A stretch of 64,000 bases of DNA from positions 31,123-95,122 of the forward strand of contig NZ_JAIXYH010000016.1 in assembly GCF_027490375.1 (NCBI RefSeq). Direction: 5' to 3'. The notes beneath the pieces are model-generated. The model made no database searches and was not told the DNA's origin. It worked only from the letters and a program-made list of their open reading frames with translations. The position numbers and the translations under genes were made by a program. Source of the DNA: Flavobacterium sp. (lineage in GTDB: Bacteria; Bacteroidota; Bacteroidia; Flavobacteriales; Flavobacteriaceae). Shown here one piece after another: positions 18,761-18,919 of the stretch. Within the stretch, counting starts at the first letter, position 1; every line of letters starts with the position of its first letter.

Positions 18761-18919
18761 TAGCTTCATCCGGCTGTTCGCTTTAGTCCGCAAAAAATAC
18801 GGCGCGTTCAATCGGTTTGCGCGTGGTTTCTCAGGTCACCACGCGCCCACCGTTTCACGCAGCCATATTTTTCTTACGGGCTACCGCTACCATCCGGGCT
18901 AGAAAATACGTTACTAACG
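18761..18919 (+). ncRNA. Core copy A of the structured repeat element (candidate structured RNA or MITE-like unit)
   Basis: The outer stem is AAAAATACGGC (18793-18803) / GCCATATTTTT (18862-18872). The central hairpin is GCGCGTGGT (18819-18827) / ACCACGCGC (18838-18846) with loop TTCTCAGGTC. The 3' module ends in ACGTTACTAACG. Homologous copies occur at six other sites. Confidence 0.55.

Follow-up and report, generated by a model that had tools for sequence, protein, structure and literature searches.

The subject of this study is a family of seven hairpin-forming elements, named c1 to c7 (Table 1), in a 64-kb window (the whole stretch of DNA that was analyzed) of contig NZ_JAIXYH010000016.1 from Flavobacterium sp. 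(assembly GCF_027490375.1). All seven lie in intergenic DNA, at a density of one per 9 kb (7 per 64 kb), next to functionally unrelated genes, e.g. an NmrA-family gene at c1 and the gene for EttA at c5. An original prediction, made from the letters of the window, held that no copy contains a conserved open reading frame (ORF), and the 33.3-kb copy (c5) is the only one overlapped by ORFs of 80 aa or more, which have GTG and TTG starts. The elements are almost certainly copies of Flavo-1 (Rfam RF01705), a family that has been catalogued since 2010, and the prediction was therefore a correct re-discovery of something already known. The EttA protein of the window is 100% identical to a 'MULTISPECIES [Flavobacterium]' protein, and identity in the flanking DNA is 97% with Flavobacterium sp. 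GCA_049240005.1 and ~85% with another two relatives at the species level, in keeping with the occurrence of Flavo-1 in Flavobacteriia/Bacteroidota. Besides the window, the analysis drew on loci fetched from relatives, from metagenomes and from IMG/VR, which carry L-numbers.

Scanning the entire window against 4227 Rfam families (E<=10) returned Flavo-1, one of the identities suggested by the original prediction, for exactly the seven copies that it had located and nowhere else. All seven align to the full length of the model (positions 1-76), at E-values between 1.2e-6 and 0.22. Only c4 reaches the gathering score of 42 bits; the other six, including c2, the copy originally flagged (E=1.4e-4), score below it because a distal extension of ~80 nucleotides (nt) is skipped by the model as a local end, and long forms comparable to these low scorers occur in the published seed alignment. 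That alignment (Weinberg et al. 2010, PMC2864571), from a study that listed Flavo-1 as a candidate RNA, contains both 5' types (UAGCC-CCGAU... and GCGUKA-GGGAU...GCCCGACC), distal inserts of widely differing length, and long forms capped by GACCAACGGAA or GACUAAGAGAA, so that the conserved apical motif noticed in the window belongs to the known family. The conserved boxes, i.e. a 5' UAGCC or GCGUKA, GAUNGNAGCGG and AGCGNANAGCSSGA, are seen throughout the cmscan alignments, the seven-copy alignment and the seed rows, and they divide the window copies into a UAGCC subtype (c2, c3 and c7) and a GCGUKA...GCCCGAC subtype (c1, c4, c5 and c6). Read in reverse complement, the Flavo-1 3' arm GGACUACAGCGG gives what had been described as a 5' module, CCGCTGTAGTCC, and the 5' arm UAGCCCGG.U.GYAGCGGYAGCCC gives the 3' module, GGGCTRCCGCTRC.A.CCGGGCTA; Rfam places all seven copies on the strand opposite to the one listed for them. 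Two of the original intervals also needed correction, 33147-33435 running ~150 nt too far to the left and 42361-42515 stopping 36 nt short on the right (to 42551). In F. psychrophilum, 128 Flavo-1 occurrences have been reported, sense or antisense to transcribed regions without distinction (Guerin et al. 2021, PMC9723704), and within Rfam Flavo-1 belongs to the bacterial 'sRNA' families of highest abundance (PMC9029176); no function is ascribed to it in the literature searched.

Table 1. Flavo-1 copies, their parts and other repeats in the window. Strand is that of the Rfam model; P0, closing helix, given as 5' box with 3' partner; P2, second hairpin.
Feature	Position	Strand	Rfam match	Bits	Description
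c1	3633-3834	-	3676-3818	28.4	GCGUKA...GCCCGAC subtype, long form
c1 P0, P2, tail	3816-3812 with 3642-3638	-			GCAAC/GUUGC; P2; CC-AAA tail
c2	18761-18932	-	18763-18904	38.2	UAGCC subtype, long form; in order, leader with palindrome CGTTAGTAACG, 5' arm UAGCCCGGAUGGUAGCGGUAGCC, long distal stem, 3' arm GGACUAAAGCGAACAGCCGGAUGAAGCUA
c2 apical loop	18828-18837	-			GACCUGAGAA on the Rfam strand (TTCTCAGGTC in the original prediction); closing 9-bp stem GCGCGUGGU/ACCACGCGC
c3	30901-31064	-	30903-31042	27.2	UAGCC subtype, long form; apical loop GACCUCAGAA
c4	31181-31338	+	31189-31287	45.7	GCGUKA subtype, short form; without GACY..AGAA apical hairpin
c4 P0	31198-31202 with 31329-31333	+			GGGUA/UACCC; second hairpin in between
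c5	33295-33444	-	33342-33428	38.7	GCGUKA subtype, short form
c5 P0	33420-33416 with 33304-33300	-			GCGUU/AACGC
c6	42352-42554	+	42368-42513	34.8	GCGUKA subtype, long form; apical loop GACCCACAGAA
c6 P0	42373-42377 with 42545-42549	+			GCGUU/AACGC
c7	49893-50062	+	49921-50060	26.6	UAGCC subtype, long form; apical loop GACCCAAGAA
P0 of Flaviramulus copy					GCGCA/UGCGC
P0 of Ulvibacter copy					GCGUU/AACGC
Tandem arrays	18493-18611, 18693-18770, 30653-30906				8-nt (AATCTTTY) and 9-nt (TTTTTTCGC/TTTTTTAGC) units
~100-nt repeat family	18202-18304, 18390-18492, 30433-30535, 33065-33167				TTCACCACTTGACGTATCGTTTTTCC...GCCTGAGCTTGTCGAAGG, four copies, 60-100% identity to reference copy
Short hairpin repeats	18361-18416, 30432-30459, 18676-18689				TAGAAGCTAGTCCCGATTGCTATCGGGA (tandem pair and third copy) and related CCGATAGCTATCGG palindrome
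~128-nt tandem duplication	30564-30712 / 30693-30840				85% identity
166-nt direct repeat	44656-44821 / 46622-46787				90% identity, 2 kb apart
Strain-specific segment	38862-39726				865 bp; ORF 38984-39700 (238 aa)
Fluoride-riboswitch-like match	12237-12317	-		19.5	gathering score 34, E=0.66; most likely chance

As a single strand, every copy folds into a rod. On the Rfam strand, its proximal part begins with a helix of 3 base pairs (bp) and an unpaired A that faces a G. A 2-bp helix comes next, then two 3x3 loops with an invariant G-C/C-G step between them, and last a helix of 4-5 bp. The window copies thus share the Flavo-1 core structure of 3+2+2+4-5 bp with two symmetric 3x3 internal loops, and both arms bear the same box, GNAGCG(R)A. 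The 12-bp core was recovered de novo by RNAalifold from a plain MAFFT alignment; in it, 90.5% of cells pair, double changes occur in 8 of the 12 pairs, the observed covariation score was reached by none of 500 shuffles, and sliding the partner by 1-3 columns lowered pairing to 21-42%. Covariation that had earlier been seen by eye was upheld by the alignment as well as by the shuffled and slid controls, and all the arms of the central hairpin and the outer stems given in the original prediction occur in the window exactly as listed, with the sequence replaced and the pairing kept. The view that the family is constrained by structure, either as a functional RNA or as a hairpin recognized by its shape, is supported by the covariation of this core.

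Beyond the core, the distal stem is free in both sequence and length (~10 to 90 nt). Five copies (c1, c2, c3, c6 and c7) are long forms, with a further ~40 bp of stem that contains more GAA-type loops and ends in GC-[GACY-N2-3-AGAA]-GC; the remaining two (c4 and c5) are short. The hairpin with a TTCT..G(G)TC loop, originally ascribed to all copies, therefore holds for the five long forms and not for the short ones at 31181-31335 and ~33295-33444. On the Rfam strand this loop reads GACY-N2-3-AGAA (TTCT..GGTC in the original reading), and it was found in 13 of the 13 long forms examined, orthologues included; in three orthologues of one copy the loop differs at N positions alone. The minimum free energy (MFE) fold of c2 is one single rod of -67.9 kcal/mol, and the repeat unit that c2 has in common with c7 (the 49.9-kb copy) reaches 18932. 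The arms of c3 are 79-90% complementary in register to those of c7, and the interiors are different. An exact 3'-arm pattern common to c2, c3 and c7 gave zero matches in a metagenome scan. A home-made model of the core, whose E-values are rough and which is biased toward the window copies, gave c7 60.4 bits.

In the GCGUKA subtype the structure does not end with the Rfam model. A five-base box that precedes the unpaired A finds its exact complement past a second hairpin, downstream of ...GCCCGAC, and pairs with it, and CC-AAA follows this partner; in the Rfam consensus these flanks are unpaired. The GCGUKA unit is a three-way junction, closed by this 5-bp long-range helix and the second hairpin and terminated by CC-AAA. 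The long-range helix is kept, with boxes that differ or are shared but stay complementary (Table 1), in all four window copies of the subtype as well as in two other genera, and unconstrained MFE folds recover it in c4 and c5. GCGUG/CACGC or GCGUU/AACGC is present in four of the five published seeds shown with flanks. For a larger sample we collected 67 metagenomic elements of this one subtype, with a search pattern that fixes much of the 3' arm and leaves both strands of the closing helix free: for 58 of them, a sequence exactly complementary to the element's own box lies within 110 nt, vs 7.6% when boxes of other elements are used. More than 13 box variants occur, including GCAUU/AAUGC, GCAAU/AUUGC, GCGGC/GCCGC, CCGUU/AACGG and GUGUU/AACAC; GGCUU/AAGCC and GGCUC/GAGCC are further variants, from copies on viral contigs of IMG/VR. 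Past the helix, the 3' flank of the 58 elements begins with C and C (in 57 and 52, respectively), followed by AAA (in 41-51). A tRNA-like reading of helix plus CCA was rejected, as ARAGORN found none and position +3 is an A in only 41 of the 58 copies. For the UAGCC subtype a closing helix, UAGC/GCUA, was tried as well and is tentative: it fits c2 and c3 together with a copy that has CAGC/GCUG, but has only 3 bp in c7 and in a copy at L087.

Complete GCGUKA units with the closing helix were also present on 10 of 33 pattern-matching contigs that IMG/VR predicts to be viral or proviral (L242 322-410, L221 ~383 and eight others). Two of these contigs are similar ~9.5-kb elements from isolate genomes, and the carriers may include host flank.

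Individual copies are conserved between relatives at the same genomic site. c1, including its second hairpin, keeps its position behind the NmrA-family gene in L082, L084 and L085, and is nearly invariant: its identity is 96%, 91% and 93%, respectively, vs 98%/100%/95%, 87%/90%/48% and 86%/88%/50% at codon positions 1/2/3 of the adjacent gene (the values for L084 and L085 were 0.899 and 0.917 as first computed, and become 91% and 93% without three gap columns past the tail). The few substitutions include compensatory ones, U-A to G-C and U-A to C-G in L085. Another long-form copy, 14 nt upstream of the start of a Cys/Met-metabolism gene, is almost invariant across the three relatives, in which the rest of the spacer has diverged, and the orthologue of c6 in L087/L088 is 94% identical. 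Contigs of related strains break at repeats in the c2 region. As judged from these aligned sequences, individual copies are under strong purifying selection, and this is our best evidence that the element does something for its host.

Several copies touch stop or start codons. The P0 helix of c1 begins 9 nt after the stop codon (3828-3826) of the upstream same-strand NmrA-family gene, that of c6 begins 23 nt past the stop of an upstream same-strand gene, c5 lies downstream of the intrinsic terminator of the same-strand gene for EttA, and c7 sits 109 nt upstream of a same-strand ORF. Such spacing might be expected of a cis-regulatory RNA in the leader or trailer, either riboswitch-like or bound by a protein, that acts in a fixed orientation on its same-strand neighbor, as might the conserved copy 14 nt before the Cys/Met-enzyme start codon and the copy directly before a small ORF upstream of EttA in Ulvibacter and Flaviramulus. 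We nevertheless regard a regulator of this kind as very improbable. Co-orientation with neighboring genes, which holds for 8 of 10 copies in the window and relatives, was ruled out as a general property by the published arrays described below and by the metagenomic sample, in which the nearest ORF (crudely called) is co-oriented with 26 of the 58 elements and anti-oriented with 32; the tightest spacing is to opposite-strand stop codons, and the neighboring genes have no function in common, which argues against a ligand-specific switch. Where ORFs flank the element on both sides (46 cases), the neighbors are tandem genes of the other strand in 16, convergent genes in 12, same-strand tandem genes in 10 and divergent genes in 8. 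Opposite-strand downstream neighbors end -1 to 19 nt from the element's 3' end in 15 of 33 cases, and same-strand upstream neighbors end within 20 nt of its 5' end in only 5 of 26. This pile-up of ORF ends at the 3' end of the element is not what is expected of random ORF ends, the crude calls notwithstanding.

The Rfam label, 'Gene; sRNA', implies a different reading, namely trans-acting small RNA (sRNA) genes with their own promoters on the Rfam strand. The covarying structure agrees with it, as does the more stable fold of that strand in 12 of 13 copies; neither a conserved promoter nor a conserved terminator was found in the flanks of the 58 copies, and a consensus scan of the copies in 30.1-33.6 kb, which for promoters covers the sigma-70 type only, found none, Bacteroidetes promoters being judged by eye. 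Many copies abut stop or start codons and leave no room for signals of their own. Published array data from F. psychrophilum (PMC9723704, supplementary file 4), of which we sampled 13 copies, bear on both sides of this question. Some copies are transcribed only on the anti-Rfam strand, within operon transcripts, and others on the Rfam strand, so which strand is transcribed differs from copy to copy. Copies 0001, 0006 and 0011 start 13, 3 and 4 nt past an opposite-strand stop codon, and their Rfam strand is at background where the operon transcript across them is well expressed; at least three of the 13 are thus at Rfam-strand background with the opposite strand well transcribed. Copies 0004, 0005, 0009, 0012 and 0013 give Rfam-strand signal, several such signals rise in the same conditions, and one copy lies where an 'independent' transcript starts (PMC9723704). 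With 128 copies per genome, unlike known sRNA families, and an array pattern that could reflect cross-hybridization among repeats, we find sRNA genes an improbable explanation, and would not class the elements as classical sRNA genes.

In the same arrays, the Rfam-strand signals of copies 0002, 0003, 0005, 0007, 0010, 0012 and 0013 belong to a single expression cluster (A1747/B546/C143) and increase together under a small set of shared conditions (PMC9723704); this could be co-regulation or cross-hybridization among repeats.

The more stable fold of the Rfam strand (totals of -555 vs -490 kcal/mol) is due to its purine-rich loops and not to wobble pairs. Wobble-pair asymmetry, tried as an indicator of the functional strand, gave no signal in the folds (G-U vs A-C, 36:37); in the conserved core of 59 elements the ratio is 14:7, with 12 of the 14 at a position where the search pattern excluded the alternative. 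GC skew was also tried, as a landmark of replication direction, and has no switch in the window. The compensatory changes require a folded single strand, and the strand-asymmetric conserved loops, together with the fixed side of the second hairpin, would imply a specific partner. Given the random orientation relative to genes, this partner would be independent of the local direction of transcription, unless half of the copies are idle, and the conservation seen in aligned relatives argues against idle copies, at least for the co-oriented ones that could be tested. Neither these tests nor the expression data single out one strand as the functional one, or RNA over single-stranded DNA.

The home-made core model gave six weak matches in 1.38 Mb from 80 other Flavobacteriaceae/Bacteroidota loci. 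With the Rfam model, 65 kb from three other Flavobacterium species gave no Flavo-1 at E<=1, and 130 kb from six species gave two matches at the gathering score. In strains 94-97% identical to the window, differences cluster at the copies, beginning at or within all three that could be compared (c1, c5 and c6). Homology to related strains stops at 3633-3636, in the CC-AAA tail of c1, and homology to L087/L088 stops at 42551, in the CC of the c6 tail; beyond both breakpoints lie different genes. L091 has c5 intact, L087/88/92/93 have it in collapsed form, and L094-96 lack it. In the four contigs with a collapsed copy, 5'-arm-AGC is joined to AAACAGCCCGAC and all that lies between its two AGCGAA boxes is lost; in L087 this copy (11749-11805) is followed at 11817-12004 by an extra UAGCC-type copy in opposite orientation, absent from this site in the window. 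Where c5 is absent, in the species of 85% identity, the neighboring gene differs too. In a metagenomic pair (L197/L206), homology is lost ~4 nt past the tail, which at 80% identity may be mere loss of alignability. The converse case, with the 3' flank kept and the 5' flank lost, was not found.

Two further differences from relatives were recorded. In L094 (2585-4171) and L095 (1049-2635), from the species of 85% identity, the place of the DNA polymerase III delta/small-ORF neighbors upstream of EttA is taken by a gene of the phage-integrase family (528 aa) and several small ORFs, and a strain-specific 865-bp segment of the window with a 238-aa ORF (Table 1) is replaced by ~40 nt in L087/L088 (94-96% identical strain).

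These strain differences bear on an explanation at the DNA level, in which a single-stranded hairpin or cruciform would be recognized by a recombinase or a Y1 (RAYT-like) transposase and the copies would form a REPIN-like population, recombination junctions, or both. It would fit orientation independent of the neighboring genes, the high density in this lineage, the end of near-identical-strain homology 0-3 nt from the element's 3' end at two copies with no converse case, and the collapse of c5 between two AGCGAA boxes with an extra copy next to it in another strain. We consider it unlikely, since the 20 proteins examined in the flanks include no transposase or integrase, there is no target-site duplication, and no att-like tail repeats occur elsewhere in the window. 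Copies moreover persist at orthologous sites, with strong purifying selection across species whose synonymous sites are saturated, unlike a selfish repeat, and a three-way junction whose internal loops are rich in purines is seen more typically in RNA. The absences can be stated more closely: the 20 proteins, scanned against Pfam, contain no transposase, integrase or recombinase; the flanks of the 58 metagenomic copies hold no direct repeat, the 3' side being the fixed CC-AAA and the 5' side weakly T-rich; and att-like direct repeats of the 3' tails are found in the window only at the copies themselves. In a narrower form, the 3' end of the GCGUKA subtype (closing helix and CC-AAA) would be a preferred junction for strain-specific DNA, i.e. 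a recombination or integration site recognized by its structure. Two clean cases in the window (3633-3636 and 42551), the weaker metagenomic case and the lack of a converse case point that way, and such a site would also explain the occurrence in either orientation, the siting hard against ORF ends and the multiplication in some lineages; we hold it to be decidedly improbable.

Taking Flavo-1 identity, anatomy and a REP-like (repetitive extragenic palindromic) structural module together, we arrive at what is probably the best explanation of the whole. Its mechanistic part is put forward more tentatively: the elements may be REP-like structural modules, maintained by the host at gene boundaries and read through by neighboring transcription from either direction. 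Such a module would act as a folded hairpin, either as a barrier or processing point in the transcript or as a docking site for a dedicated binding protein, which would leave its footprint in the invariant loops. The original prediction had named a REP/MITE-type element as a possibility; the REP-like half agrees with a multi-copy, intergenic family that occurs in either orientation and changes between strains, and the MITE (miniature inverted-repeat transposable element) half is not supported, as no target-site duplication is seen. Several points weigh against a REP-like module. Among the 20 window proteins scanned there is no binding protein, transposase or nuclease partner; the strand-asymmetric features, i.e. 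the purine-rich loops, GACY..AGAA and a second hairpin that is always 3', are not explained by a hairpin that works independently of orientation, and wobble-pair asymmetry picks no strand. Strong purifying selection on each copy is unusual for REP-type repeats. The metagenomic sample behind the orientation counts is, in addition, one subtype drawn by a pattern, with crude ORFs.

As a discovery the family carries little weight, having been in Rfam since 2010. What is added here is the closing helix and second hairpin, a measurement of selection, the polarity toward stop codons and the coincidence with breakpoints, none of which establishes function. The closing helix and second hairpin improve the model for searches and define a unit for biochemical work. 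The statistics of position and orientation, together with published expression, favor a gene-boundary element, read from either side, over a conventional sRNA gene, and in two cases (c1 and c6) strain-specific DNA begins right at the 3' end of the element.

Other repeats share the spacers of the window (Table 1). Tandem arrays of 8-nt and 9-nt units adjoin c2 and c3, where on the Rfam strand they are purine-rich and lie directly past the element's 3' end; metagenome contig SNRY01000484.1 (L100) and L172/L205 have similar GAAAGTGG-type arrays after their Flavo-1 copies. A general companionship of purine-rich 8-nt arrays with Flavo-1 was considered and rejected, since they accompany only c2, c3 and the copies of one metagenomic organism and are absent at most others. 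The separate ~100-nt repeat family has no Rfam match at E<=10. The ~128-nt tandem duplication lies in the 30-kb spacer, and the 166-nt direct repeat overlaps the starts of two minus-strand ORFs. The weak fluoride-riboswitch-like match falls inside a long ORF.

Comparison with known systems places the family among several kinds of structured intergenic repeat. With integron attC sites it shares the logic of recognition by shape, conserved proximal stems with fixed unpaired bases, a terminal structure of variable length, sequence that is replaced with the pairing kept, and a position just past ORF stops; it differs in having no GTTRRRY/RYYYAAC pair (R''/L''-L'/R') at the base of the stem, in copies that lie 0.2-15 kb apart on both strands with no cassette arrays, and in the absence of an integrase among the proteins scanned. 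ERIC/IRU and Correia (NEMIS) elements are likewise intergenic hairpin repeats of ~100-170 nt, which come in discrete long and short forms set apart by an internal block and are co-transcribed with flanking genes, whereas the present copies have no terminal inverted repeats apart from the hairpin, no target-site duplication and no clean filled/empty pair that we could find. REP, BIME and REPIN sequences are similar in being abundant, intergenic, imperfect palindromes, mostly by the 3' ends of genes, in either orientation and read through, as well as in the gain, loss and rearrangement of copies between strains. In contrast to REP and REPIN, Flavo-1 is larger, has conserved mismatched loops, a three-way junction in one subtype and copies conserved across species, no RAYT was found (20 window proteins, Pfam), and there is no GTAG-type 5' tetranucleotide, the bases before AGCG being variable (GCAGCG, GUAGCG, AAAGCG, UUAGCG) and the box lying inside both arms and not at the terminus. 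With Flavo-1 (RF01705) itself, the window elements share arms with a UAGCC or GCGUKA 5' end, AGCG boxes in both arms, two symmetric loops, an AGCSSGA 3' end, a distal stem of variable length, the GACY..RGAA cap in long forms, the taxon and the multi-copy habit (128 in F. psychrophilum); nothing essential sets them apart, and the GCGUKA copies described here extend past the Rfam model into the second hairpin and the closing helix.

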